Origin: Candidatus Omnitrophota bacterium
Lineage (GTDB): Bacteria; Omnitrophota; Gorgyraeia; Gygaellales; JAQTUX01
Assembly (NCBI GenBank): GCA_028707125.1
Contig: JAQTUX010000002.1
Span: 16,355 to 80,354, forward strand
DNA: 64,000 nt
Direction of reading: 5' to 3'
Shown: one piece after another, positions 5,282 through 62,288 of the stretch
Layout: every line of letters begins with the position of its first letter
Numbering within the stretch: the first letter of the stretch is position 1
The notes under the pieces: model-generated
Told to the model about the DNA's origin: nothing
The model's input: only the letters and a program-made list of their open reading frames with translations
Database searches by the model: none
Program-made: the position numbers and the translations under genes

Positions 5282-6462
5282 TATTTTTTGTCCTTCAGTG
5301 CCGCGATGCCGGGAAGGATTTTTCCCTCCATAAGCTCAAGAGATGCCCCGCCGCCGGTTGAGATGTGGGTCATTTTGTCTTCCAGTTTAAATTTGGCTAT
5401 TGCCGCCGCGGTATCGCCGCCGCCGATTATCGTGGTGGCTCCCAACGCGGCTATCAGGTTGGCTATCTCTTCTGTGCCCTTCTTAAAAGAATCCCATTCG
5501 GAAACCCCAAGCGGGCCGTTCCATACTACTGTCTTGGCGCCTTTTAAGGCGGCCTTGAACTTTTCTATTGTCTTTGGCCCGATATCAAGGGCCATCAGGC
5601 CTTCGGGGATATCCTCGGAGTCAATAACGTGGGGCTCTGCCGAGGCGTCAAACCTGTCAGACGCTACATGGTCTACAGGAAGGGCTATGTTCACATTCTT
5701 TGTCCTGGCGTCGTCCAGGATCTTCTTGGCGATATTTACTTTATCCGGCTCAAGCTTGGAACTGCCGACATTCTTGCCTAAGGCAACAAGGAAGGTGTAG
5801 GCCATTCCTCCGCCGATTATGATGCAGTCGGCCTTGGGCAGCAGATTTTCGATCACACCTATTTTGTCGGAGATCTTGGCGCCGCCGAGGATTATCACGA
5901 AGGGCTTTTTGGGTTTATCCAGGGCGCCGATAAGGTACTCTATTTCTTTCTCCAGCAGGAAGCCGGCTACCGAAGGCAGGTATTTTGTAACGCCTTCTGT
6001 TGATGCGTGCGCTCTATGGGCTGTGCCGAAGGCGTCATTGACGAATATGTCTGCCAGGCCTGCCAGTTCTTTGGCGAAGGCAGGGTCATTGGCTTCTTCT
6101 TCGGCGTGGAATCTCAAGTTCTCCAGCAGGATGACTTTTTCTTTCGCGGCATCGACTTCTGCCTTGACTTTGACGCAGTCGTTGAGTTTTTTCACGGGCA
6201 TATTCAGGAGTTTGTTTAATCTCTCGGCTACGGGCTGTAAGCTGTATTTTGCCTCCGGCTTGCCCTTTGGCCTGCCCAGATGGCTCATCAGGATTAACTT
6301 TGCCGCGCCTTTGTCCAGGATGTATTTCATTGTGGGGACTGCCGCGCGTATTCTGATGTCATCGGTGATGTTCAAAGATTCATCGAGCGGCACATTAAAG
6401 TCCGCCCGCATAAGCACTTTTTTGCCTTTCAGGTCAATGTCTCTAATAGTCATTTTATCCAT
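5281..6462 (-). CDS. pgk: Phosphoglycerate kinase.
   Basis: [27 protein letters not shown] aligns to the Pgk N-terminus. The likely start is the ATG at 6462, with GGAGG 7 nt upstream. The ORF-track start at 6531 is a GTG inside an upstream hairpin and is probably an over-extension. Confidence 0.93.
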
Positions 6463-6520
6463 AGTCATACCTCCGAAAGAACATATTTTACGCCAATATG
6501 TCTTTTTGTCAATACTTTCT

Positions 6521-6600
6521 CCTCTACACACTTACGTGTGTAGAATCGTCTATCTTCCAAGCTTACCATGCCCCACACGTAAGTGTGGGGTAGCATTTCG
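6521..6600. repeat. Dual-hairpin intergenic element, copy 1: tctacacacTTACgtgtgtaga, a roughly 28-nt spacer, then ccccacacGTAAgtgtgggg.
   Basis: Two perfect 8-9 bp stems with 4-nt loops. A near-identical unit recurs at 26425-26503, and a single-hairpin version at 46711-46730. It lies upstream of a TTGACA-16-TAAAAT promoter for pgk. Confidence 0.7.
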
Positions 6601-6766
6601 TTCTAGGCAGCGGGGCCTGTCTTTGGACAGCCCCACCCCGTGCTCATTACCATAACGGACGGGAGAACTCCGCGCGGGGCGGGGCGCCCCGTCCAAAGCC
6701 ACCCGCTGAGACATCAGCGAGACATCCTCAACGTCCCTCGAAACCCAGCCAAGCCATCCGCTACAA
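6596..6766. repeat. GC-rich palindromic repeat, copy A (REP/MITE-like), the left boundary of the low-GC cassette.
   Basis: cctgtctttggacagccccaccccgtgctcattac ... gaactccgcgcggggcggggcgccccgtccaaagccaccc is near-identical to the reverse complement of 8966-9068. It contains internal inverted sub-repeats (ctttggac...gtccaaag). Confidence 0.75.
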
Positions 6767-6907
6767 TAATCTGTCGGCACCAAAACAAAACGGCGCCAAT
6801 TTCTCAGCGCCGATAAGTGTCACATTTTGTGACACCTTAATATTTCTTCTATAACTCGTTAGGGGTAATTAGATTGCGTAAAGCGCCTGAAGGATTAGCG
6901 ATTAGGA

Positions 6908-8131
6908 TTATACGGTAAATCTTTCAACAGTAGTCATATCTATAATCCCAGAACTAATATTCTTCAAAATGATAAAAGGTTTTAATAATGGATTTTTAAA
7001 TCGATATCTGTATCGTTTAGGTTTACCTATCTTTTCTAAAACATCTCCTCGATCGGCACTACATAATTGACTTAAATTATACGCGAAATAAGAAACAGTC
7101 ATCGTCGTCCTTTCGGTTATATATTTAAGAGGGGCTAAAATATCCATTGCACGGAAAGTTCCGTAATCATCTACAGGTGCCAAAGCACAAGCAAGCAAAA
7201 CTTCGCTAAACATTGTTTTCTTTGAAGCTATAGTTGCTTTTTGATACAAATCTCTTATGCTTTCTTGTGTATCATCTAAGGCCTGTTCTATTGCCATTTC
7301 AAAATCTGCTGAAGTGATTTCATTTCTTTCACTAATAATAGCTTGTTTAGCACAATATTTAGATAACAAATGAGTATAATGCGGAAATCCTTGAGATAGA
7401 CTTGCAATGCGATTTTTTATTTCCTCGTTCATGTTGAGCGCTAAAATACTAAGACCCTTATTTATGATCTCCTTGAGTTCTTCACGAGACATACGTTGAA
7501 GAAAGACTTGCCGAAGATTTCTTTCAATCGAAGCGTGTTCTCCTATTAACTCATTTACATTATGTGCAACGCCAACTATAACTAAAGTAACGTTAAATAA
7601 ACTGTCGGAAAAAGCTTTAATAATATCTGAAAAAAGTCGCTTAGTTTTAGTATCGTCTACTCTATCAAATTCATCAATAATTAATATTATAAATTTCGAA
7701 ATCTTCTCGAAAATATGTACAACATCATCTGGATTTATTGGCTTATCTGGAGAAAGAAAGCCATTAAGAGAAAAGGATTTTAACTCTGTATCTTTACCAA
7801 AGCCAAGCTTAGCCTGCTCTGAGGTTATATATATCCGCTTAAGCAATTTTCTCCAGATAGCTGAAAAATCATCATTGGTAACGCAGTTTACTTTAACAAC
7901 TATTTGAGCAGGTAATAACTCATTAATTATATTCGATAAAGAAGTCTTTCCAACCCCCCTCTCTCCGTATAAAATAGCATGACGTCCTTTTTCGTTTATG
8001 CTTGCATAAACTGCATCAATTTGCGATATTCTCCCTGCAAATAAATCTTTCTTATCAATAGGTGCGGATGGTGAAAATATGGAATCTAATAATATAAGTT
8101 TTTCTGTCTTAGGGTCGATTTGTTGATCCAT
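6908..8131 (-). CDS. AAA+ ATPase of the ATPase_2 (Arch_ATPase, COG1672-like) family, with a C-terminal DUF234-like domain I take to be a winged helix.
   Basis: Walker A GERGVGKTSL and Walker B IILIIDEFD. The C-terminal KPKRYRYRFKNPLLKPFI resembles the DUF234 motif. The gene is AT-rich relative to its flanks and has an AAGGGAGGA RBS. Confidence 0.7.
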   Translation of the reverse strand: MDQQIDPKTEKLILLDSIFSPSAPIDKKDLFAGRISQIDAVYASINEKGRHAILYGERGVGKTSLSNIINELLPAQIVVKVNCVTNDDFSAIWRKLLKRIYITSEQAKLGFGKDTELKSFSLNGFLSPDKPINPDDVVHIFEKISKFIILIIDEFDRVDDTKTKRLFSDIIKAFSDSLFNVTLVIVGVAHNVNELIGEHASIERNLRQVFLQRMSREELKEIINKGLSILALNMNEEIKNRIASLSQGFPHYTHLLSKYCAKQAIISERNEITSADFEMAIEQALDDTQESIRDLYQKATIASKKTMFSEVLLACALAPVDDYGTFRAMDILAPLKYITERTTMTVSYFAYNLSQLCSADRGDVLEKIGKPKRYRYRFKNPLLKPFIILKNISSGIIDMTTVERFTV

Positions 8132-8764: not shown

Positions 8765-8857
8765 ATAACAATCCGAATAACTTACTAATTGTTCATCTTT
8801 TCTATTATACCATCCCGCGGGCGGGGCTCAAATGGAATTTGGAGTTATCCACAACTG

Positions 8858-8929
8858 TAGGGGAGGTTTAAACCTCCCCTACCACTTATATAATATAAAA
8901 GGTGGTCGCAAATTGCGACCACCTTTTAT
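8858..8929. terminator. Pair of perfect hairpins (gtaggggaggtttaaacctcccctac, then ataaaaggtggtcgcaaattgcgaccaccttttat). The second looks like a bidirectional intrinsic terminator.
   Basis: Perfect 9-13 bp stems. The second stem is flanked by A-runs and T-runs on both sides. Confidence 0.55.
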
Positions 8930-8940
8930 ATTATTTCGTA

Positions 8941-9093
8941 GCGTCTGGCTTGGCTGTGATTGCCTCAGTGGGTGGCTTTGGACGGGGCGCCCCGCCCCGC
9001 GCGGAGTTCACCTATGATGAATTAGTAATGAGCACGGGGTGGGGCTGTCCAAAGACAGGACCCGCTGTCTCGAAACACAGCCAAGACAGACGC
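8941..9093. repeat. GC-rich palindromic repeat, copy B (REP/MITE-like), the right boundary of the low-GC cassette. Its own termini are inverted: gcgtctggcttggctg ... cagccaagacagacgc.
   Basis: The reverse complement matches copy A over about 35 + 40 bp with one or two mismatches. It carries 16-bp terminal inverted repeats and an internal imperfect palindrome. Confidence 0.75.
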
Positions 9094-9095
9094 AG

Positions 9096-9127
9096 AAAGT
9101 GTTCCTGAGCGAGAAAGGCAACGGGTT
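9096..9127. repeat. 32-bp direct repeat DR1 (tgagcgagaaaggcaacgggttcattgcatag), followed by a UUCG-type hairpin at 9131-9160.
   Basis: Matches 9849-9880 at 29 of 32 positions in direct orientation. The two copies bracket the protease module. Confidence 0.7.
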
Positions 9128-9185
9128 CATTGCATAGAGATTGCTTCGCCCCTTCGGGGCTCGCAATGACGGAAGCGGCAATTCG

Positions 9186-9931: not shown

Positions 9932-10600
9932 TTACTGCAATTTCTCGGGATGATGCCGGACGACTTCTGCCTGGACCATATAGATCACGTCCTCGGCGAT
10001 ATTGGTAGCGTGGTCGCATATGCGCTCCAGGAAACGGGCTATCAGCAACAGCTGGACAGCCCTGGGGGCCGTAGAGCCGTCCTTGACCATGTAATCTTCT
10101 ATGAGCTCCTTTTGTATCACATCGCGGAGCTGATCGGCCTGCGAATCAGACAACAGGACCTGCTTTGCCAGGGCGATATCCCCTTTTACGAACGCGTCTA
10201 TGGACATCTTTACCATATTCTGCGCCACAGCCGTCAGCCTGGGTATATCTATAAGCGGCTTTAACAGCGGCTTGTCCACTATCTCAAGTGTCCGCTGCGC
10301 TATATCCACGGCAATGTCCGCTATCCTTTCCAGTTCAGCGTTTATCTTCATACCGGTGGTGATAAAACGAAGATCCTTTGCCATCGGCTGATAGCGCGCT
10401 ATCAGATCAATGCACTTCTCATCCACGGACAATTCCAGCTTATCAATATCGGCGTCGTTGCTTATGACGCTCTTTACCATATCCTTATCCCGGCCCTTCA
10501 GCGCCTCTACTGATCTATAGATGGCCTCTTCTGCCAGGGCAGCCATCTTCAGGATCTCCTTGTTCAGTTCTTTCAACTCCTGGTCAACATGCCTTTCCAT
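9932..10600 (-). CDS. phoU: Phosphate transport system regulatory protein PhoU.
   Basis: Two PhoU repeats. The gene sits at the 3' end of the pst operon. Confidence 0.9.
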   Translation of the reverse strand: MERHVDQELKELNKEILKMAALAEEAIYRSVEALKGRDKDMVKSVISNDADIDKLELSVDEKCIDLIARYQPMAKDLRFITTGMKINAELERIADIAVDIAQRTLEIVDKPLLKPLIDIPRLTAVAQNMVKMSIDAFVKGDIALAKQVLLSDSQADQLRDVIQKELIEDYMVKDGSTAPRAVQLLLIARFLERICDHATNIAEDVIYMVQAEVVRHHPEKLQ

Positions 10601-24801: not shown

Positions 24802-25873
24802 CGTATATCTGGCTTAAAACTGCCGGGTTGGACAACTGCCGCACGCGGGCAGCGGCAGATCTAGCATTGTCCGGATCATTCTTCAGATCCAGGACCGCCT
24901 CTTTTACCGCCTCCGCGCTATCTGCCAGCGCGCCTACGCCATAGCGCGCTAATACCCTGACGTTGCTTACCTCCTGTCCGGGTATGGGAGAAATAAAGAT
25001 CATCGGCAGGCCCATGGCTATGCTCTCCGATACAGACAGCCCGCCCGGCTTTGTGACTATCGCATCTGCCGCCGCCATTAATTCATACATATTGTCCACA
25101 AATCCGAATACCTTCACGCCGCGAAGGTTACTTTCGTTCAATTTTCGGAATATCTTCCTGTTATGCCCGCAGACAACCATAAGATCGACATTGCCCCGCA
25201 GCCGCTCAACTATCCTCTCTAACGGCCCCATGCCGACCGTGCCGCCGGCGATCAATACAGTAAACCCGTCTTTCCGCAGGCCAAGCTTCATCCTCATGAG
25301 CGCCTTATCGTAAATACGGTGGTACTCTTCGGCAACAGGTATGCCTGTGACCATGATCCTGGACCTGTCTATACCCAGCGCCATAAGAGCATCCCTGGTG
25401 CTGTCCAGGGCGACCACAAATTTATATACAGAATCAAACAGCCAGTATCTGTGCACGTCAAAATCGGTGATCACGCAAAAAAGGCGCGCGCGCAGGCCTC
25501 TATACTTTATGAGAAAATCCAGGATCTCATTGATCAGAAAATGGGTGGAGATGATCACGTCCGGCCTGGACCGGAAAACATACCGCGCGAACCCGGAGGT
25601 ATTTAAGCGGTTGACCAGAAACCTGAAGGGGCTGCTGATACTGGCGCAAAAATGAGAGAGATGATACAACAGCGCCCAGACAGGCCTGAGCCGGGTTATA
25701 AGATATAAGTAGCCGCGGTCATATATTCTTTTAAAAACGGGGTTGGTGAACGCCAGGATGTCTATAAGTTCGGCGCTATGCTGAGGGTGATGGCGGGTAA
25801 GATAACTATGTACCGCCTCCGCCGATTTCCTGTGGCCGGTGCCGCTTGAGGCATAACAAACCAGTATCTTCAT
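24764..25873 (-). CDS. MGDG-synthase-like / UgtP-type GT28 glycosyltransferase.
   Basis: MKILVCYASSGTGHRKSAEAV N-terminus, as in the MGDG_synth family, plus a GT28 C-terminal domain. Confidence 0.7.
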   Translation of the reverse strand: MKILVCYASSGTGHRKSAEAVHSYLTRHHPQHSAELIDILAFTNPVFKRIYDRGYLYLITRLRPVWALLYHLSHFCASISSPFRFLVNRLNTSGFARYVFRSRPDVIISTHFLINEILDFLIKYRGLRARLFCVITDFDVHRYWLFDSVYKFVVALDSTRDALMALGIDRSRIMVTGIPVAEEYHRIYDKALMRMKLGLRKDGFTVLIAGGTVGMGPLERIVERLRGNVDLMVVCGHNRKIFRKLNESNLRGVKVFGFVDNMYELMAAADAIVTKPGGLSVSESIAMGLPMIFISPIPGQEVSNVRVLARYGVGALADSAEAVKEAVLDLKNDPDNARSAAARVRQLSNPAVLSQIYDEICKSCPGDPS

Positions 25874-26424
25874 CGCAGGATAATATCAACCGCTTCCCGC
25901 AGGTCGGAAGCGGTGTGATCCGGGGCAGCATCCCAGGCGCTTTTATTGCGCGGCTTCTCCTTGCCGGAAAATACCACGATCGTCTTTAACCCGGCGGATC
26001 TGCCTGTCTTTACGTCAACAATAGAATCGCCCACAAAGAAACACCTGGAGAGATCCAATTTCTGACTTTTTCCAGCTAAAAGTTTCACGGCCTTATCTAT
26101 CAAGCCGGTCCTGGGCTTCCTGCAGGGACAATTATCCGCGGCAGTATGCGTGCAGTAAGAAACGCAATCTACGACAGCCCCTTCGGCTTTAAGTTTTGAC
26201 AGCATCTTTTGAGTTATCTCATTAAGTGAGTCCTGGCTGAACAGGCCCCTGCCTACGCCTGACTGGTTGGACACGACGCATACCTTGAACCCCGCCTTGT
26301 TCAGTTTCTTTATCGCGTCTATGGCCCCAGGTAGAAAGACAAACTCCTTCCAGGAGGTAACGTAGCTGTCGTCTCCGGGGTATTTGTTTATGACGCCGTC
26401 CCTGTCCAAAAATACAATTTTCAT
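25870..26424 (-). CDS. gmhB: D-glycero-D-manno-heptose 1,7-bisphosphate phosphatase (HAD-IIIA).
   Basis: DRDGV HAD motif I and the CxC zinc motif (CPCRKP) typical of GmhB. Confidence 0.85.
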   Translation of the reverse strand: MKIVFLDRDGVINKYPGDDSYVTSWKEFVFLPGAIDAIKKLNKAGFKVCVVSNQSGVGRGLFSQDSLNEITQKMLSKLKAEGAVVDCVSYCTHTAADNCPCRKPRTGLIDKAVKLLAGKSQKLDLSRCFFVGDSIVDVKTGRSAGLKTIVVFSGKEKPRNKSAWDAAPDHTASDLREAVDIILR

Positions 26425-26503
26425 ATTTCCTCTACACGCTTACGCGTGTAGTATCCTTTGCCTCTCTTGGAATTGCCATTCCCCACACGTGAGTGTGGGG
26501 TAA
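26425..26503. repeat. Dual-hairpin intergenic element, copy 2 (tctacacgcTTACgcgtgtag, spacer, ccccacacGTGAgtgtgggg). It fills the whole gap between the epimerase stop and the gmhB start.
   Basis: Same architecture and near-identical stems as 6521-6600. The 3' arm of the first hairpin runs directly into AGGAAAT-ATG of gmhB. Confidence 0.7.
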
Positions 26504-27541
26504 TCACCTAAAGAATTTCTCATTCTCCTTTACCCACTCAATGAGCCGGCCTATACCCTGCGGCACGCTCGTCCCCGCCTTCCAGCCCAGCGCCTTCTCC
26601 ACCTTTTTTGTATCCGAAATGTACACCTTCTGGTCGGAAGGCCTCCAGCCGCAGAATTTAATGTCCGTCCCCGTACCGGTCTGTTTTTTTAATTCATCCA
26701 TGAATTCAAGAAGCGACGCGGTGTTAGCGGGGCCTCCGCCTATGTTGAAGACCTCGCCCTTTATATTGCTATGTATGAATTTGTCAAACGCGTCCACCAG
26801 ATCGGTGACATAAAGCAGGTCTCTGACCTGCTTGCCGTCACCATAAATATTGATGGGCTTGCGGAAAAGATTGGCGATCACAAACCAGGCAACCCATCCC
26901 TGGTCCTCAAAGCCGAACTGCCTGACGCCGTAAATACAGGACATCCTGAATATGCCTGTCCTCATCCCGTAAATATGCCCGTACTCCTGAGTATAAAGGT
27001 CGCCGGTCAGCTTTGACACGCCGTAAGGCGTATGGCCGGTCAGGTCCGTGCACATGGATTCGTTTATGCCGGCACTGCCATCATAGGTATACCTTTTCCC
27101 GCCTTCCTTCAACGGTATGCTGTCGATATTTTCTCCATAGACCTTGTTGGTAGAACAGTAAACAAACGCCGCGTCTTTGTTCTTCTGCCTTAAGGCCTCA
27201 AGCACATTGATCGTGCCGAAGGCGTTTATGCTGAAGTCCTCAAGGGGCATCCTGACCGAAGAAGGCACTCCCGGCTGGCCCGCGGTATGTATACAGGCGT
27301 CAACACCTTTTCCTATCGCCTTCTTTACGTCCTGTTCATTCCTCACATCCCCCTTTACCCTCTCTATATTCTTATATTGTTTCAGATAGTTCCAGTTGAA
27401 TTCCACCGAATCCTTGTCGTAGCCGAACAACTTTGAGCGCATCAGGTTATCCAACGCGACAACATCATAGCCCTTCCTGGCAAAATGCTCCGCGCAATGC
27501 GAACCCACCAATCCTGCTCCGCCAGTGACCAATATCCTCAT
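26504..27541 (-). CDS. NAD-dependent sugar epimerase/dehydratase (SDR, CDP-paratose-2-epimerase-like).
   Basis: TGGAGLVGSH Rossmann motif and a YxxxK catalytic pair. Confidence 0.75.
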   Translation of the reverse strand: MRILVTGGAGLVGSHCAEHFARKGYDVVALDNLMRSKLFGYDKDSVEFNWNYLKQYKNIERVKGDVRNEQDVKKAIGKGVDACIHTAGQPGVPSSVRMPLEDFSINAFGTINVLEALRQKNKDAAFVYCSTNKVYGENIDSIPLKEGGKRYTYDGSAGINESMCTDLTGHTPYGVSKLTGDLYTQEYGHIYGMRTGIFRMSCIYGVRQFGFEDQGWVAWFVIANLFRKPINIYGDGKQVRDLLYVTDLVDAFDKFIHSNIKGEVFNIGGGPANTASLLEFMDELKKQTGTGTDIKFCGWRPSDQKVYISDTKKVEKALGWKAGTSVPQGIGRLIEWVKENEKFFR

Positions 27542-44936: not shown

Positions 44937-45450
44937 GATACCTTGCCGACCTGCCCGCCCTTATCAGGTTCCTTATTTCATAGGCAGAGATGTCTATGGA
45001 TTTTATATTTACCTTGACTATCCTTTCCGGAAGGCTTGAGAGTATGTACCCCGGGCGATTAGCGACCACAAAATCAGCCAGGGCAAAGATCTCATCCACG
45101 TCCTTCCATTCGCCTAAATAGTTGATAAGGTCCGAACCGGTTATAAAGAAAAGTTTATCGTCAGGATATATCTTTTTAAGCTGCCTTAAGGTCTCAACCG
45201 AATAGGACTTGCCTTTGCGCCGTATCTCTATATCAGACACAAAAAAGCGCGGATTTTGTTTCAAGGCCTTCTTCACCATCACAAGCCGGTCTTTCGCGGA
45301 GGCGATCGAATCCTCCTGCTTATGAGGAGGTAGGTTGGAAGGGATGAATATCACCCTGTCCAGGCCCAATCCCTGCAAGACCTGCTCTGCCATCAATAGA
45401 TGGCCGTAATGTATCGGGTTAAACGTGCCTCCTAAAATGCCTATCTTCAT
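44884..45450 (-). CDS. nadD: Nicotinate-nucleotide adenylyltransferase.
   Basis: GGTFNPIHYGH (H/T-x-G-H) motif. Confidence 0.9.
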   Translation of the reverse strand: MKIGILGGTFNPIHYGHLLMAEQVLQGLGLDRVIFIPSNLPPHKQEDSIASAKDRLVMVKKALKQNPRFFVSDIEIRRKGKSYSVETLRQLKKIYPDDKLFFITGSDLINYLGEWKDVDEIFALADFVVANRPGYILSSLPERIVKVNIKSIDISAYEIRNLIRAGRSARYLVPDEVRGYIEKRGLYR

Positions 45451-46703
45451 GCCCGCACCTGTCCGCTGCCATAAATAGTATATTTATAGGTAGTCAGTTC
45501 TTCCAGCGCCATGGGGCCGCGGGCGTGCAGCTTATCAGTGCTTATGCCTATTTCCGCGCCCATACCGAATTCATAACCGTCGGTAAAACGGGTAGAGGCG
45601 TTCAGGTAAAGGCAGGCGGAATCTACCTTGCCGAAGAACACCCGCGCGCGCTCCTCATCATCGGTAACAATGCTTTCGGAATGGCCGCTGCCGTACTTAT
45701 TGATGTGCCTTATGGCCTCTTCAAGGGAATCAACCACCCTTACCGACAGTATCAGGCCAAGGTACTCCTCTGACCAGTCATTTTCCTGAGCCCGCTTTAG
45801 CCCCCTTACGATCCTCCTCGTCAGTTCATCGCCGCGTATCTCAACGCCCGCCTCCGCGAGTTGTTTTATCATCCCGGGCAGGAACCGCGCCGCGACATCC
45901 TTGTGCACAAGCAGCGTCTCCATCGCGTTGCAGACCCCCGGGCGCTGCACCTTGGCGTTAAAGGCGATCCTCTGCGCCATATTCAGATCCGCCTCTGAAT
46001 CAATATACACATGGCATACCCCTTTATAATGCTTGATCACGGGTATCCTGGATTTAGCGGCGATCTTTTTTATCAGCGCCTCGCCTCCGCGCGGAATGAT
46101 CAGGTCTATGTATTTATCAAGAGTGAGCATCGCGTCTACGGCCGATTTATCGGAGAATAAGATCATATTAAGGCAGCCCTGGGGAATGCCGGACTCAAGC
46201 GCGGCATTATTCAATGTGTTAAAGATCGCGCGGTTGGAATTCAGCGCTTCGGAGCCGCCGCGCAGAATAACGGCGTTGCCCGACTTAAGGCATAACCCCG
46301 CGCAGTCGGCGGTAACGTCAGGCCGTGATTCGTAAATGATCCCTATAACGCCTATGGGCACGCGCACCTTCCTTATCTTGAGGCCGTTTGGCCTCAATGT
46401 TTCCTTGATCACTTCTCCTACCGGATCAGGAAGCGAGGCCACCTGCTCAAGGGAAGCGCGCATAGCGGCTACGCGCTTATCATTAAGCGACAGCCGGTCT
46501 ATTATGGAGGCGGAAAGCCCCTTCTTCCCTGCCAGGGCAACGTCTTTCTGATTAGCGCCAAGGATCTCCTTGATGTTGGAAGATAACGCGGCAGACATAT
46601 TCCGCAGGGCCCTGTTCTTGATGTTGGTATCAAGGGCGGCTAAATCAACCGCCGCCTTCTTTGCCGCCTGAGCAATTTTGAGTATTCTTTTCTGGATATC
46701 CAT
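45447..46703 (-). CDS. proA: Gamma-glutamyl phosphate reductase.
   Basis: Aldehyde-dehydrogenase-fold ProA signature, adjacent to proB. Confidence 0.92.
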   Translation of the reverse strand: MDIQKRILKIAQAAKKAAVDLAALDTNIKNRALRNMSAALSSNIKEILGANQKDVALAGKKGLSASIIDRLSLNDKRVAAMRASLEQVASLPDPVGEVIKETLRPNGLKIRKVRVPIGVIGIIYESRPDVTADCAGLCLKSGNAVILRGGSEALNSNRAIFNTLNNAALESGIPQGCLNMILFSDKSAVDAMLTLDKYIDLIIPRGGEALIKKIAAKSRIPVIKHYKGVCHVYIDSEADLNMAQRIAFNAKVQRPGVCNAMETLLVHKDVAARFLPGMIKQLAEAGVEIRGDELTRRIVRGLKRAQENDWSEEYLGLILSVRVVDSLEEAIRHINKYGSGHSESIVTDDEERARVFFGKVDSACLYLNASTRFTDGYEFGMGAEIGISTDKLHARGPMALEELTTYKYTIYGSGQVRA

Positions 46704-46710
46704 CTTTCCC

Positions 46711-46730
46711 CTCTACAGGCTTACGCCTGT
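46711..46730 (-). promoter_or_regulatory. GNRA-tetraloop hairpin in the proB-proA junction. The proB stop codon lies in the loop and the proA Shine-Dalgarno sequence follows the 3' arm.
   Basis: mRNA sense: CUACAGGC GUAA GCCUGUAG, then AGGGGAAAG-AUG. The last three proB codons (LQA) form the 5' arm and the stop TAA is the loop. The stem is the same as in the dual-hairpin elements at 6521 and 26425. Confidence 0.6.
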
Positions 46731-47794
46731 AGCATCACCAAATCATTCCTGTGCACTACTTCCCTGGCAAATTTCTTTCCAGTATTTCCCGCGATCGCGG
46801 AAGAAGAAAAAGAAGATATGCCGCGCGCGAATTCTTCGCCGTTCTTATCCAATATGCTTATTATTTCACGAGCGTCAAATTCACCTTTGACATCAATAAT
46901 GCCCACGGCAAGCAGGCTTTTATTTTTATTTATAAGCGCGGCCTTCGCGCCGTCATCAACGACGATCTTTCCCTTCGGCTTTGTCCCGAAGGCGATCCAG
47001 TGTTCTTTCGCCGAAAGGCCCTTCTTTGACACGAACAAAGTCCCGTTATCCTGAGGCGCGATCACGGCTGAAGCGACTATTCGCTCCTTATACCCGTTAG
47101 CAATGACACATGGTATGCCCGAATCCACCGCGATCTTTGCCGCCTCGATCTTAGTGATCATCCCGCCTACACAAGTCCTGTTTTTAGTAGGGCAGGCCAG
47201 GGATTTTATCTCGGCGCCGATCTCATCCACTATCCGAATGACTCTCCCCTCTTTATCCAGCAGCCCGTCCACATCCGAGAGCATGACCAGGAGGTCCGCC
47301 TCCACTAATTTTGCCACCAGCGCCGAAAGCCGGTCATTATCGCCGAATTTTATCTCGTCTGTAGAAATAGTGTCATTTTCATTGACTACGGGCACGCGCC
47401 CTAATCTTAGTAACGCCAAAAGCGTATTCCTGGCGTTCAGGTAACGCTGACGGCTGTCAAAATCATCCCAGGTCAATAATACCTGCGCGCAGTTAATGCC
47501 GAACTTTTTAAATTGGCCCCTATAGTTATCCATCAACTCATTCTGGCCGATGGCCGCGGCCGCCTGAAGCAGGGGCAATTGTTTCGGCCTGGCAGCCAGC
47601 TTCATCGACTCCATCCCCAGGGCAATCGCGCCGGAAGATACAACGATGACCTCTTTGCCTTCGGCTTTTATCAATTCGCTGAGCTGCGAAACGATTTCAA
47701 AAAAACGCGACAATTCCAGCTTCCTGCCGCTATAAAAAAGGCTTGAGCCGATCTTTATCACGATCCTTTTATATTTTTTTGACGACCGCTTCAA
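46721..47794 (-). CDS. proB: Glutamate 5-kinase.
   Basis: Amino-acid kinase domain plus a C-terminal PUA domain. Confidence 0.92.
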   Translation of the reverse strand: MKRSSKKYKRIVIKIGSSLFYSGRKLELSRFFEIVSQLSELIKAEGKEVIVVSSGAIALGMESMKLAARPKQLPLLQAAAAIGQNELMDNYRGQFKKFGINCAQVLLTWDDFDSRQRYLNARNTLLALLRLGRVPVVNENDTISTDEIKFGDNDRLSALVAKLVEADLLVMLSDVDGLLDKEGRVIRIVDEIGAEIKSLACPTKNRTCVGGMITKIEAAKIAVDSGIPCVIANGYKERIVASAVIAPQDNGTLFVSKKGLSAKEHWIAFGTKPKGKIVVDDGAKAALINKNKSLLAVGIIDVKGEFDAREIISILDKNGEEFARGISSFSSSAIAGNTGKKFAREVVHRNDLVMLQA

Positions 47795-58279: not shown

Positions 58280-59538
58280 TTTAGCCCGCCCTCTGCTGTA
58301 TCAGCCGGCAAGAGCTGGCTGCCCTTTATTATGACCGCCGCGCCCAGCGCGAGATCGAACCAAAAGAACATCCCCAGGTTCAAATTATACAGGCTGGTAT
58401 CAAAGAGCATATGCCCGCAAAATACTATGGCGGCCGATACGCTGGCCAGGGATGTATACCAATATACATCCCTCCTGCCTTTCTTTAAAAATCTGATACC
58501 GTAGTAGAAAAAAACAAGCAATATTAACAGGAACGACGCCAACCCTATAACCCCTGTTTCAGCTGCTATCTGCAGGTAGCAATTATGCGCGTAGGGTATA
58601 CCGTGGCCGTAGGGATAATCCACAAATCTCCTGAAATTGAACATGAAAGTACCCAGGCCAATACCCATCCACGGCTTGGACAGGATCATCTTAAGGCACC
58701 CCTGCCAGATCAGGCGCCTGTCCATACTGCCGGCATCGGTCAATTCAAACATGCCTTTCAGGCGCGCCTGCAAATAGGTATTGCCGGAAAGGAAGAATGC
58801 CGCGGTGCCTACTATAAGCACCAAGACAAGAAAGACAGCCAGATACCTCAGCCATAAGCTCATAAATAATATTGAAATAAGCGAAACAAGCCATGAGCCG
58901 CGGGAAACGGTAAGCATTAAACAGGAAAACAGGAGCACGAACAGGGCCAATACCGAGGCGCGGGCAAACCTGCGGCGGAAGAAAGCGAAGGCGGAGATCA
59001 CAAAAGGAATGACCATGGCCAGATAGCAGCCAAAATCATTAGGCGTATAGAATGACGCTGTGATCCTGGGTATGTCCCACCATTTACGGCAGCGGATGAA
59101 GTCCTTGTGAGTAAAATGCTGATATATACCGTCTATTCCCAAAAGGGCGGCGGATACGAACAGGATATAAAATACATTCCTGACCCTGCGTTGATTATTC
59201 AGGGTTTCCACTACGGCAAAGAAAAATAATATATTCTGTAAAAGCTTATATGAAAAGGTGTGCGCGCTGATTATCAGGTTGCTGCTAAGGAAAACCGACA
59301 GGAAACAAATAGCCAGGTAGGCAAAGATCGCGTAATTCATATAGGTATCCGGCAGCAGGCTGCGCTGCAGGATCTTTTTGAAGACATATAACGCTATTGC
59401 CAGAATACTTGCCGTCTCTATAATGGCGGTGGATATCGGCAAAAAATATACGACTATGTAGATCAGAACAAGGATAGCCCTATCCAGAAAACCTATGGCC
59501 TTATCTCTTTCAAAACGCATCCGCGCCTGCCTTATCAA
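58276..59538 (-). CDS. O-antigen ligase/polymerase-like membrane protein (Wzy_C family), second copy.
   Basis: About 11 TM helices and a periplasmic loop with the conserved Arg/His pattern. Confidence 0.65.
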   Translation of the reverse strand: MIRQARMRFERDKAIGFLDRAILVLIYIVVYFLPISTAIIETASILAIALYVFKKILQRSLLPDTYMNYAIFAYLAICFLSVFLSSNLIISAHTFSYKLLQNILFFFAVVETLNNQRRVRNVFYILFVSAALLGIDGIYQHFTHKDFIRCRKWWDIPRITASFYTPNDFGCYLAMVIPFVISAFAFFRRRFARASVLALFVLLFSCLMLTVSRGSWLVSLISILFMSLWLRYLAVFLVLVLIVGTAAFFLSGNTYLQARLKGMFELTDAGSMDRRLIWQGCLKMILSKPWMGIGLGTFMFNFRRFVDYPYGHGIPYAHNCYLQIAAETGVIGLASFLLILLVFFYYGIRFLKKGRRDVYWYTSLASVSAAIVFCGHMLFDTSLYNLNLGMFFWFDLALGAAVIIKGSQLLPADTAEGGLK

Positions 59539-61339: not shown

Positions 61340-62288
61340 CGTTAATAATTTCCTCTAAATTATAGCTGGGCTTAAACCCTATCAGCTTGTTGATCTTACC
61401 CGTGTCGGGTACCCTGCGCTGCATATCTTCAAAGCCCTCCTCGTAGGCCTGATTATAAGGAACATATACGATATTTGACTTGCTGCCGGTTAATTTAATG
61501 ATCTTTTCGGCTAATTTTTCTATGCTGACCTCTTCCTGGCTGCCTATATTAAAAACCTCGCCCACAGCGCCCTTCTCATCCATCAGGGCCGCGATCGCGT
61601 TCACGGCGTCTCCGACATGTAAAAAACACCTCGTCTGTTTGCCGCTCCCATAGACGGTTATATTCTCATTATTTATGGCCTGTTTTACGAACCTGGGGAT
61701 CACCATTCCGTAGGAGCCGGTCTGCCTGGGGCCCACAGTGTTGAACAACCTCACAATTATGCTGGGCAGGCCCTTCTCTTTCCAGTATATATAAGCCAGC
61801 ATCTCATCTACCGCCTTGGCGGTAGAATAACCCCAGCGGCTCTTCAAAGGAGAACCCAGGATCCTGTCATCGGTCTCCTTGAGCGGGCCGTTTGTGTTTT
61901 TGCCGTAGATCTCCGAAGTGGATGTGATCAATATCTTTTTGTGATAACGATAAGCCATATCTATGACTATCTCGCTTCCCTTGATATTGGTCGTCAGCGA
62001 CTCCAGCGGCCTTTTTACCACTAATTCAACCCCCACAGCCGCGGCAAGATGGAATATCACATCACACTTATCTACCAATTTTTCTACGACCGGGCCGTTA
62101 AGTATGGAGCCCGTCATAACATGTAAACGCGGGTTATCTTCAAATGAGGCAATATTATCCCAGCTGCCTGTTGAAAGGTCGTCCAGAATGGTTACTTCAT
62201 CGCCCTTCCGCAGGTAGGCTTCCGCCAAATGAGAACCGATAAAACCCGCGCCGCCTGTAATCAATACCTTCATATTTTCACCTGACAA
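61311..62288 (-). CDS. NAD-dependent epimerase/dehydratase (SDR).
   Basis: [13 protein letters not shown] and YxxxK (YSTAK). Confidence 0.8.
   Translation of the reverse strand: MSGENMKVLITGGAGFIGSHLAEAYLRKGDEVTILDDLSTGSWDNIASFEDNPRLHVMTGSILNGPVVEKLVDKCDVIFHLAAAVGVELVVKRPLESLTTNIKGSEIVIDMAYRYHKKILITSTSEIYGKNTNGPLKETDDRILGSPLKSRWGYSTAKAVDEMLAYIYWKEKGLPSIIVRLFNTVGPRQTGSYGMVIPRFVKQAINNENITVYGSGKQTRCFLHVGDAVNAIAALMDEKGAVGEVFNIGSQEEVSIEKLAEKIIKLTGSKSNIVYVPYNQAYEEGFEDMQRRVPDTGKINKLIGFKPSYNLEEIINDVIGFYRRK

Follow-up and report, generated by a model that had tools for sequence, protein, structure and literature searches.

Paired-hairpin elements in Omnitrophota operons as probable miniature derivatives of an IS200/IS605-family transposon

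Within a 64-kb stretch of the genome of a Candidatus Omnitrophota bacterium (contig JAQTUX010000002.1; hereafter the window), a short element composed of two tetraloop hairpins recurs beside unrelated genes, raising the question of what this element is and how it came to lie there. The original prediction, made from the letters of the window, offered three answers: a REP-like mobile palindrome, an RNA stability or processing element, or a protein-binding operator common to unrelated operons. Our analysis supports and sharpens the first of these. The same two hairpins lie inside an Omnitrophota gene for a Y1 transposase of the IS200/IS605 type, and we consider it probable (about 0.8) that an IS200/IS605-family transposon specific to Omnitrophota gave rise to the intergenic elements as miniatures without a gene, comparable to PATEs, REP doublets, and BIMEs.

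We refer to the hairpin beside the downstream gene as h1 and to the hairpin beside the upstream gene as h2, the sense strand being the minus strand of the window, which is also the gene strand. Two full two-hairpin elements (copies 1 and 2) and one single-hairpin copy consisting of h1 (copy 3) are present, all on the minus strand (Table 1). The h1 pattern, CTACAnnC-GTAA-GnnTGTAG followed by AGG, occurs at three sites against 0.03 expected from shuffles, and the h2 pattern, CCCCACAC-N4-GTGTGGGG, at two sites against 0.10 expected, confirming that the repeated two-hairpin architecture is real. Every stem in the window is perfectly Watson-Crick over 8–9 base pairs (bp); the 9-bp first stem that had been described for both full copies holds for copy 1 but not for copy 2, since the ninth pair (T-A) is present in copy 1 only. 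The spacers between h2 and h1 measure 27 nucleotides (nt) in copy 1 and 29 nt in copy 2, close to the 28–30 nt anticipated, and the single-hairpin copy does exist, albeit at 46713-46732 rather than at 46711-46730 as first placed. A covariance-model search with filters off finds no fourth copy in the 64 kb; by the same model, copy 1 scores 63.2 bits in the sense orientation versus 38 bits in antisense. On folding, copies 1 (two hairpins) and 2 give z-scores of -5.4 and -5.5, respectively, and the h1-only copy 3 gives -2.1.

The placement of the three copies relative to genes also bears out most of what had been proposed. In the mRNA sense, h1 presents a GNRA loop (GUAA) and is followed by a Shine-Dalgarno-like AGGA(G), and copy 2 occupies the entire 79-nt gap between the stop of an epimerase gene (26504) and the ATG of gmhB (26424). 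In copy 3, h1 covers the 3' end of proB and comes within 9 nt of the proA ATG; the final TAA of its GTAA loop is the proB stop (46721-46723; ..LQA*), whose frame matches that of the transposase stop described below. Copy 1 lies between a terminator-like site and a promoter-like site of pgk, immediately upstream of the -35 box, as had been noted. Because this promoter-like site is downstream of the element, copy 1 falls outside the pgk mRNA. On the sense strand, a U-tract is missing after both hairpins, h2 running into (A/C)AUGG and h1 into AGGA, in agreement with the earlier view that the element is not a typical intrinsic terminator, and we rejected a Rho-independent terminator on this ground; the intrinsic-terminator scan flagged just the antisense side of the copy 1 h2. 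Rfam returned nothing at the gathering threshold across the whole window and only chance-level matches (E<=10) at 6300-7000.

Table 1. Elements in the window, their neighboring genes and sites, and intact transposase genes in related loci. Sequences are given in the minus sense.
Feature	Position	Strand	Evidence or remark
Copy 1, full form	6520-6591	-	Pattern matches and covariance model
Copy 1, left end	6591	-	A
Copy 1, h2	6571-6590	-	CCCCACAC-TTAC-GTGTGGGG
Copy 1, spacer	6544-6570	-	CATG...GATT
Copy 1, h1	6524-6543	-	CTACACAC-GTAA-GTGTGTAG
Copy 1, right end	6520-6523	-	AGGA
pgk promoter-like site	6485-6512	-	TTGACA-16-TAAAAT; 11/12 matches; directly downstream of copy 1
Copy 2, full form	26428-26501	-	Pattern matches and covariance model, 72.6 bits
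Copy 2, left end	26501	-	A
Copy 2, h2	26481-26500	-	CCCCACAC-TCAC-GTGTGGGG
Copy 2, spacer	26452-26480	-	AATGGCAATTCCAAGAGAGGCAAAGGATA
Copy 2, h1	26432-26451	-	CTACACGC-GTAA-GCGTGTAG
Copy 2, right end	26428-26431	-	AGGA, then AAT and the gmhB ATG (26424-26422)
NAD-dependent epimerase/dehydratase gene	26504-27541	-	TGA stop 3 nt before copy 2 h2
gmhB-like HAD phosphatase gene	25870-26424	-	Downstream of copy 2
Copy 3, h1 only	46709-46736	-	Covariance model, 31.1 bits
Copy 3, left flank	46733-46736	-	GATG
Copy 3, h1	46713-46732	-	CTACAGGC-GTAA-GCCTGTAG, consensus form
Copy 3, right end	46709-46712	-	AGGG, then GAAAG and the proA ATG (46703)
proB, glutamate 5-kinase	46721-47794	-	Last codons CTA CAG GCG TAA are the h1 5' arm and loop
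proA, glutamate-5-semialdehyde dehydrogenase	45447-46703	-	Downstream of copy 3; product 100% identical to a Candidatus Omnitrophica MAG protein
tnpA, locus L103	Between V-ATPase E and C		Co-oriented
tnpA, loci L106/L107	Between argG and argH		Co-oriented
tnpA, locus L104	Between SpvB and a Tc-toxin gene		Co-oriented

The element is not confined to the window. When 185,579 genomes, each representing one species, were searched with the exact pattern, 10 loci came back; six of them contain h1 (five in Omnitrophota metagenome-assembled genomes [MAGs] and one in a MAG labelled Planctomycetia). In five of these six, h2 stands directly before h1, and in the sixth, L004, the sequence begins just 20 nt upstream of h1; the remaining four loci are without h2 and amount to roughly the number expected by chance. 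The commonest link between h2 and h1 in the genome-scan loci is the 8-nt AATGGATA. Metagenomes were scanned with the anchor GGGGAATG...GATA-N8-GTAA-N8-AGG, leaving the h1 stem free, and the hits split cleanly into 16 with 7–8 paired positions and 71 with 6 or fewer. Thus, many copies with the paired architecture exist in other genomes and metagenomes, including at least four in a single MAG (MFD13425 bin19). The outcome named beforehand as refuting the prediction, namely a lack of further copies or of a conserved pairing, did not arise. The family layout reads, in order, a stop codon, A-CCCCACAC-N4-GTGTGGGG-AATG, a variable 0–21 nt, GATA-CYRCANNC-GTAA-GNNTGYRG-AGGA, and a start codon, and it is constant over 27 copies: the upstream stop lies 0–13 nt before h2 (often as TAA-CCCC), AGG(A) follows h1, and the start codon comes 3–20 nt further on. 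Beyond A(-1) on the left and AGGA on the right, conservation is lost. Position -1 is A in 18 of 18 copies, positions -2 and -3 lean to T and A, and TAA abuts the element in 6 of the 18. The full h2-h1 spacer of the short elements, AATG and GATA tags included, ranges from 7 to 29 nt. More than 20 different downstream genes are found, and they are unrelated (pgk, gmhB, proA, ruvB, trpS, ligA, ispG, thiL, accB, V-ATPase E, glycosyltransferases, and others), for which reason a riboswitch or regulon was discarded.

The stems of the family covary. Across an alignment of 19 elements, 97.7% of the cells are paired and 7 of the 16 pairs have changed on both sides, whereas slid controls reach at most 56%. 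The compensatory forms comprise CTAC/GTAG, CCAC/GTGG, CTGC/GCAG, and CCGC/GCGG in h1 and CCCCACAC, CCCCATGC, CCCCACGC, and CCCCGTAC in h2. By the covariance model, the gene-sense strand outscores antisense by about 30 bits, and six of seven folded stretches give z-scores of -4.6 to -5.7 (L046, -3.5). Read on its own strand, each hairpin has the same plan, namely a 4-nt tag (GATA or CATT), C-N-N-C-A-N-N-C, and a GTAA-type loop; the GNRA-type loops of h1 and h2 therefore face opposite strands, that of h2 being GNRA-type in antisense, and the pair amounts to two units in inverse orientation joined by a variable linker. One long REPIN-type hairpin formed by h2 with h1 was also considered and rejected, as the two are alike at only 12 of 20 positions and each covaries internally and not with the other. 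Because the spacing between the hairpins varies from 8 to 29 nt, a combined -35/-10 promoter laid across both was likewise rejected, and a CsrA site (GGA in the spacer and in the Shine-Dalgarno sequence) was dropped since the spacer motif is (G)ATA, with no conserved GGA. At L010 455-545 and L016 6261-6340, h2 variants carry a nested extra hairpin of about 20–30 nt in the stem (e.g., CCCCAC..GTGCCCCGTTAGAT..ATCTAACGGGGCAC GTGGGG), which implies that insertions are accommodated in h2 and not just in the spacer. Beyond the end of a gene at L031 11900-12040, other short hairpins cluster that are rich in GC and have loops of the GNRA type (ATTCCCGC-GGAA-GCGGGAAT and CCCCTGC-GAAA-GCAGGGG); this organism may harbor a second family of repeats.

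A probable origin of the element emerged from a transposase gene. The Y1 transposase open reading frame (ORF) of L003, an Acidobacteriota locus, was searched against all collected loci and matched L006 and L031. In L006, a copy of h2 is followed 16 nt on by a Y1 transposase ORF that contains h2, spacer, and h1 in frame (..HE TPHLRMGNSGYYRRKPVEGKRHF WARRYGY..). This ORF has 21 database homologues of 86–145 amino acids (aa) with the Pfam domain Y1_Tnp, and those named at NCBI are called 'IS200/IS605 family transposase [Candidatus Omnitrophota]'. P0131, P0123, and P0129, all from related loci and not from the window, match Y1_Tnp with 99.9 bits and pass the NCBIfam model transpos_IS200 (NF033573) with 84–89 bits (cut-off 55), and the Omnitrophota proteins fail REP_Tyr_transpos (RAYT, NF047646) with 22–32 bits (cut-off 80). 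They align to IS608 TnpA (2a6m) over residues 3–115, including the HUH motif HVHIL and the catalytic tyrosine region YIREQ, and the 120-aa forms terminate in ..YIREQKRIPHT*.

Both hairpins are located within the 3' third of this Y1 (HUH) tnpA gene of 120–145 aa. In the DNA of L103, L104, and L106, h2 is the stretch ACC CCA CAC TTA CGT GTG GGG AAT, which encodes TPHLRVGN, just before the strand and helix bearing the catalytic tyrosine. The terminal hairpin, ..AGG ATA CCA CAC ACG TGA GTGTGTGG AGG, encodes ..KRIPHT with the stop codon in the loop and AGGA thereafter. A covariance model built from the intergenic elements alone matches inside tnpA genes with 36.5–75.3 bits. The motif TP-x-x-R-x-G/R-N occurs in some variant in 19 of the 21 homologues, most commonly as TPHLRVGN, which makes it unlikely that the hairpins in tnpA are insertions of an unrelated element in a few gene copies. 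Its second and fifth residues change together (H/V in 11 proteins, R/V in 3, H/A in 3, C/M in 2, with no discordant pair); in L104, for example, CCG...GCG gives P...A. The residue pairs are thus limited to combinations that preserve the stem, implying that the hairpin constrains the protein.

The short form retains A, h2, and AATG together with GATA, h1, and AGGA, and lacks the approximately 85 nt of coding sequence between them; where this segment is retained inside tnpA, the h2-h1 spacer is about 94 nt. Intergenic short elements translate to TPCLRMGNARCNEGYHRRKPVEE and are up to 92% identical to an internal segment of P0124. In the 140-aa subtype (P0121–P0126, L006, L106), a complete short element lies in frame after the native h2 and is followed by a degenerate terminal h1. 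Copy 2 of the window still reads TPHSRVGN...GYYTRKRVEE in the transposase frame, and its spacer (..TCCAAGAGAGGCAAAGGATA) remains similar to the last tnpA codons (ATCCGAGAGCAGAAAAGGATA). In sequence and structure, the short form amounts to the hairpin pair of tnpA minus the intervening coding sequence.

Related loci document how the gene behaves in its hosts. Intact tnpA is a co-oriented cistron of host operons, with junctions of 1–30 nt (Table 1). At the V-ATPase E-C junction that holds an intact tnpA in L103, L031 has a tnpA cut down to its first 10 codons plus the tail from h2 to h1; the transposon-derived part is about 89% identical between the two loci and the adjacent E gene 73%. The L031 gene is an in-place decay intermediate. 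The neighboring c-E junction carries a short element in L031 and none in L103, and a single-hairpin chimera, composed of the 5' arm of h2 and the 3' arm of h1, is present at L103 11767-11809. Short elements and tnpA co-occur in L031, L104, and L006, and L108 holds no element copy. The proB-proA junction, which contains h1 in the window, has no element in four relatives, where the two genes overlap or are 1–2 nt apart, so that orthologous conservation at this junction was rejected; altogether, these four related Omnitrophota regions (78 kb in total) contain no copy. The V-ATPase C-subunit frame reaches back into the 3' arm of h1 (L103 10361-10372, L031 7414-7425). In L103, its start GTG lies at 10368, 5 nt after the tnpA stop, and in L031 no other start codon is nearby; the transposase and the host V-ATPase C may be translationally coupled.

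Members of the IS200/IS605 family transpose as single strands by a peel-and-paste mechanism (PMC5027513). By analogy with this family and with REP/RAYT systems (PMC5027513, PMC8266576), the Y1 enzyme would recognize the hairpins as single-stranded DNA and copy the short unit in trans. The same short spacers (AATGGATA, or a 23-nt class) recur at unrelated junctions, even within one MAG, which favors copying of an already short unit over repeated identical deletions. The co-orientation of element and genes may result from the lagging-strand-template bias reported for the family (PMC5027513), from selection, or from both. In the window, 63 ORFs out of 64 (minimum length 90 aa) lie on the minus strand, most gene junctions overlapping or being shorter than 30 nt, and the plus-strand GC skew is -0.09 to -0.16 throughout, placing these ORFs and the transposase-sense strand of the element on the G-rich strand in this one region. 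The uniform orientation agrees with such a template bias; because nearly all genes share a strand, however, the bias is inseparable from selection against antisense insertions. Once in place, the hairpin with AGGA would act as the ribosome-binding site of gmhB (copy 2) and proA (copy 3), the hairpins of both copies probably being carried passively in the operon mRNA. With AGGA placed immediately 3' to a stable hairpin, the element seems adapted to residence within operons. Copy 1, in turn, would be a relic with no apparent host role.

Several observations weigh against derivation from a transposon, or at least limit it. Neither a tnpA gene nor a fragment of one is present within the 64-kb window. 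The left hairpin is internal to the 120-aa gene, so the h2-h1 unit excludes part of the gene and leaves movement of the whole gene unexplained; no separate left-end hairpin was found upstream of tnpA in L103 or L106. The left flanks of 18 copies show no conserved target tetranucleotide, unlike IS608 (TTAC). No empty-site/filled-site pair with clean ends was recovered, and transposition of the short form is therefore inferred. Both collection scans demanded AGG after h1 and are biased towards copies before genes, although 9 of the 10 copies identified free of this requirement also have AGG after h1. Finally, stems are perfect in every copy, and an element lies at a homologous junction in two genomes (L009 and L021; flanking proteins 44% identical), which could reflect host-level selection for an RNA role.

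This last point leads to the most serious competitor, in which the element is a host-selected intercistronic RNA device: cleavage in the spacer would leave h2 guarding the 3' end of the upstream message and h1 guarding the 5' end of the downstream one while insulating and presenting the Shine-Dalgarno sequence, the transposase link being a matter of origin only, or of full exaptation. We regard this as improbable, even though the strictly sense orientation, the tight spacing to the stop and start codons, the AGG after h1, the perfect stems with compensatory changes, the strong folds, and the junction shared by L009 and L021 are all what such a device would have. Stem covariation is equally explained by selection on a transposon family, and the spacer classes of L009 and L021 differ, suggesting separate insertions. 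Moreover, copy 1 is not intercistronic at all, the four copy-free relatives operate their proB-proA junctions without an element, and the GNRA-type loop of h2 on the antisense strand has no explanation in a role confined to RNA. A dedicated RNA-processing or stabilizing function is nonetheless plausible as a secondary role of a transposon-derived element.

Classical REP/BIME sequences mobilized by a RAYT (a REPtron) in place of an IS200-type enzyme would account for the pairing of 20-nt palindromes in opposite orientations across a linker of variable length, as a BIME is defined (PMC8266576), for the CTAC...GTAG ends of the window copies, and for the Y1 transposase gene of L003, which stands between inverted copies of nearly the same 20-mer. 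Yet the associated proteins fail the RAYT model and pass the IS200 one, GTAG, far from being an unpaired 5' tag, belongs to a paired stem and changes to GTGG, GCAG, or GCGG together with its partner, and the hairpins are internal to the gene instead of flanking it, which renders this origin highly unlikely. Least likely of all, and effectively refuted, is a palindromic operator for a dimeric DNA-binding regulator common to several operons, as the original prediction had suggested, or a riboswitch-like leader: perfect palindromes near gene starts would suit either, but the stem centers covary, which is not required of an operator contacted by protein, the loops are asymmetric and fixed in orientation relative to the genes, the more than 20 downstream genes have no common function, and no Rfam family matches. 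The derivation from an IS200/IS605-family transposon is the one that we retain.

Compared with known systems, the element resembles PATEs, which are non-autonomous derivatives of IS200/IS605 elements (PMC3119063, PMC7290912), in being short, ORF-less, and bounded by two hairpin-forming ends, with an associated Y1 HUH transposase that passes the IS200 model. It differs from them in its far smaller size (about 52–75 nt), in ends that lie inside the tnpA reading frame and not in non-coding flanks, in showing no target tetranucleotide on the left flanks compared, and in asymmetric loops borne on opposite strands. With REP, BIME, and REPIN sequences (PMC8266576, PMC3733652, PMC3116915), it shares 20-nt palindromes arranged as oppositely oriented doublets with linkers of varying length, an intergenic position mostly between co-directional genes, sub-families with complementary stem changes, and a Y1 transposase gene physically associated with the palindromes; the hairpin pair is a tail-to-tail doublet in the sense of PMC3733652, and its opposite-strand GNRA loops are closer to REP/iREP pairs than to the ends of IS608. 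Unlike REP sequences, it has no unpaired GTAG, the conserved unpaired tags being GATA and, on the other strand, CATT; its transposase fails the RAYT model; and the family spans many Omnitrophota lineages rather than being species-specific. Unlike the halves of a REPIN, its hairpins are too dissimilar (12 of 20 positions) to form one long hairpin. The transposase fold and motifs are those of IS200 (Salmonella) and IS608 (Helicobacter), and the hairpins are likely recognition elements; in contrast to these, the Omnitrophota gene is only 120 aa long and a cistron of host operons with junctions of a few nt, it has no separate left-end hairpin upstream in L103 or L106, and the right end of the element donates a Shine-Dalgarno sequence to a host gene. 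In a literature search of limited coverage, we found neither an account of this family nor a publication that links Omnitrophota to IS200, REP, or hairpin repeats. As a small mobile repeat the element is ordinary; the hairpins embedded in coding sequence, the operon-embedded transposase, and the donated ribosome-binding site are unusual.

The L003 locus (Acidobacteriota MAG CAVSLK010000005.1, 6069-6775) deserves description in its own right. Here, inverted copies of CTACACGCGTAAGCGTGTAG stand on either side of the IS200-like Y1 transposase ORF (6271-6708), with GCCGTC-N4-GACGGC-GTCAGAATTTA in front of each, and the sequence occurs a third time at 6069-6088; the arrangement is REPtron-like, belongs to a different phylum, and has a hairpin nearly identical to h1.

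The surroundings of the copies contain other structured sequences. The pgk ORF (Pfam PGK, 533 bits) is separated from the preceding STAND-NTPase gene by a terminator-like site (a hairpin followed by a T-run, 6791-6812), and between this site and copy 1 lies a GC-rich non-coding stretch (6594-6790) that, in the minus sense, folds strongly and contains two large hairpins with a common TTTGGAC/GTCCAAA; the 317-nt fold of 6594-6910 reaches -125 kcal/mol (z -3.8). Neither an Rfam match nor a copy in the collected loci was found for this stretch, which may represent a small RNA gene or a further decayed element. A 15-aa upstream ORF after copy 1 (TTG at 6512-6510, its end overlapping the pgk start as ATGA) was considered and discarded, as its TTG is the first half of the -35 TTGACA and hence lies outside the pgk mRNA. 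Elsewhere in the window, a perfect 11-bp hairpin with REP-like GTAG/CTAC ends (GTAGGGGAGGT-TTAA-ACCTCCCCTAC, 8857-8882) occurs once, in a 421-nt intergenic gap (8765-9185), and two perfect palindromes lie within ORFs, one of 11 bp (58448-58473, AGGGATGTATA-CCAA-TATACATCCCT) and one of 8 bp whose TCTAC...GTAGA ends are those of h1 (61807-61826, TCTACCGC-CTTG-GCGGTAGA). A scan for tRNA and tmRNA genes in the window found none.

Beyond the derivation itself, we tentatively put forward, as a bolder idea about which we remain doubtful, that the family represents an undescribed Y1 life-style: a minimal transposase that is an ordinary cistron of housekeeping operons, keeps its substrates within its own frame (the motif hairpin and the stop hairpin), and copies out only the tail of its gene, the resulting 50–75-nt doublets having been domesticated across Omnitrophota as intercistronic cassettes that provide a post-stop hairpin and then a hairpin-insulated Shine-Dalgarno sequence.

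The derivation accounts for an intergenic motif whose conservation was otherwise hard to explain, in a phylum that is uncultured and little studied, and it provides annotators with a covariance-model-ready family to mask or label. It also offers a case in which a DNA/RNA hairpin constraint shapes protein sequence, as PHLRVG, PCLRMG, and PHLRAG covary with the stem, and one in which a transposon appears to be tolerated in essential operons by virtue of an end that supplies the ribosome-binding site of the next gene. If the proposed mobilization is true, the short elements would be among the smallest hairpin-bounded mobile units known, and the 120-aa TnpA with its 20-nt hairpins would make a tractable pair for studying single-strand transposition.

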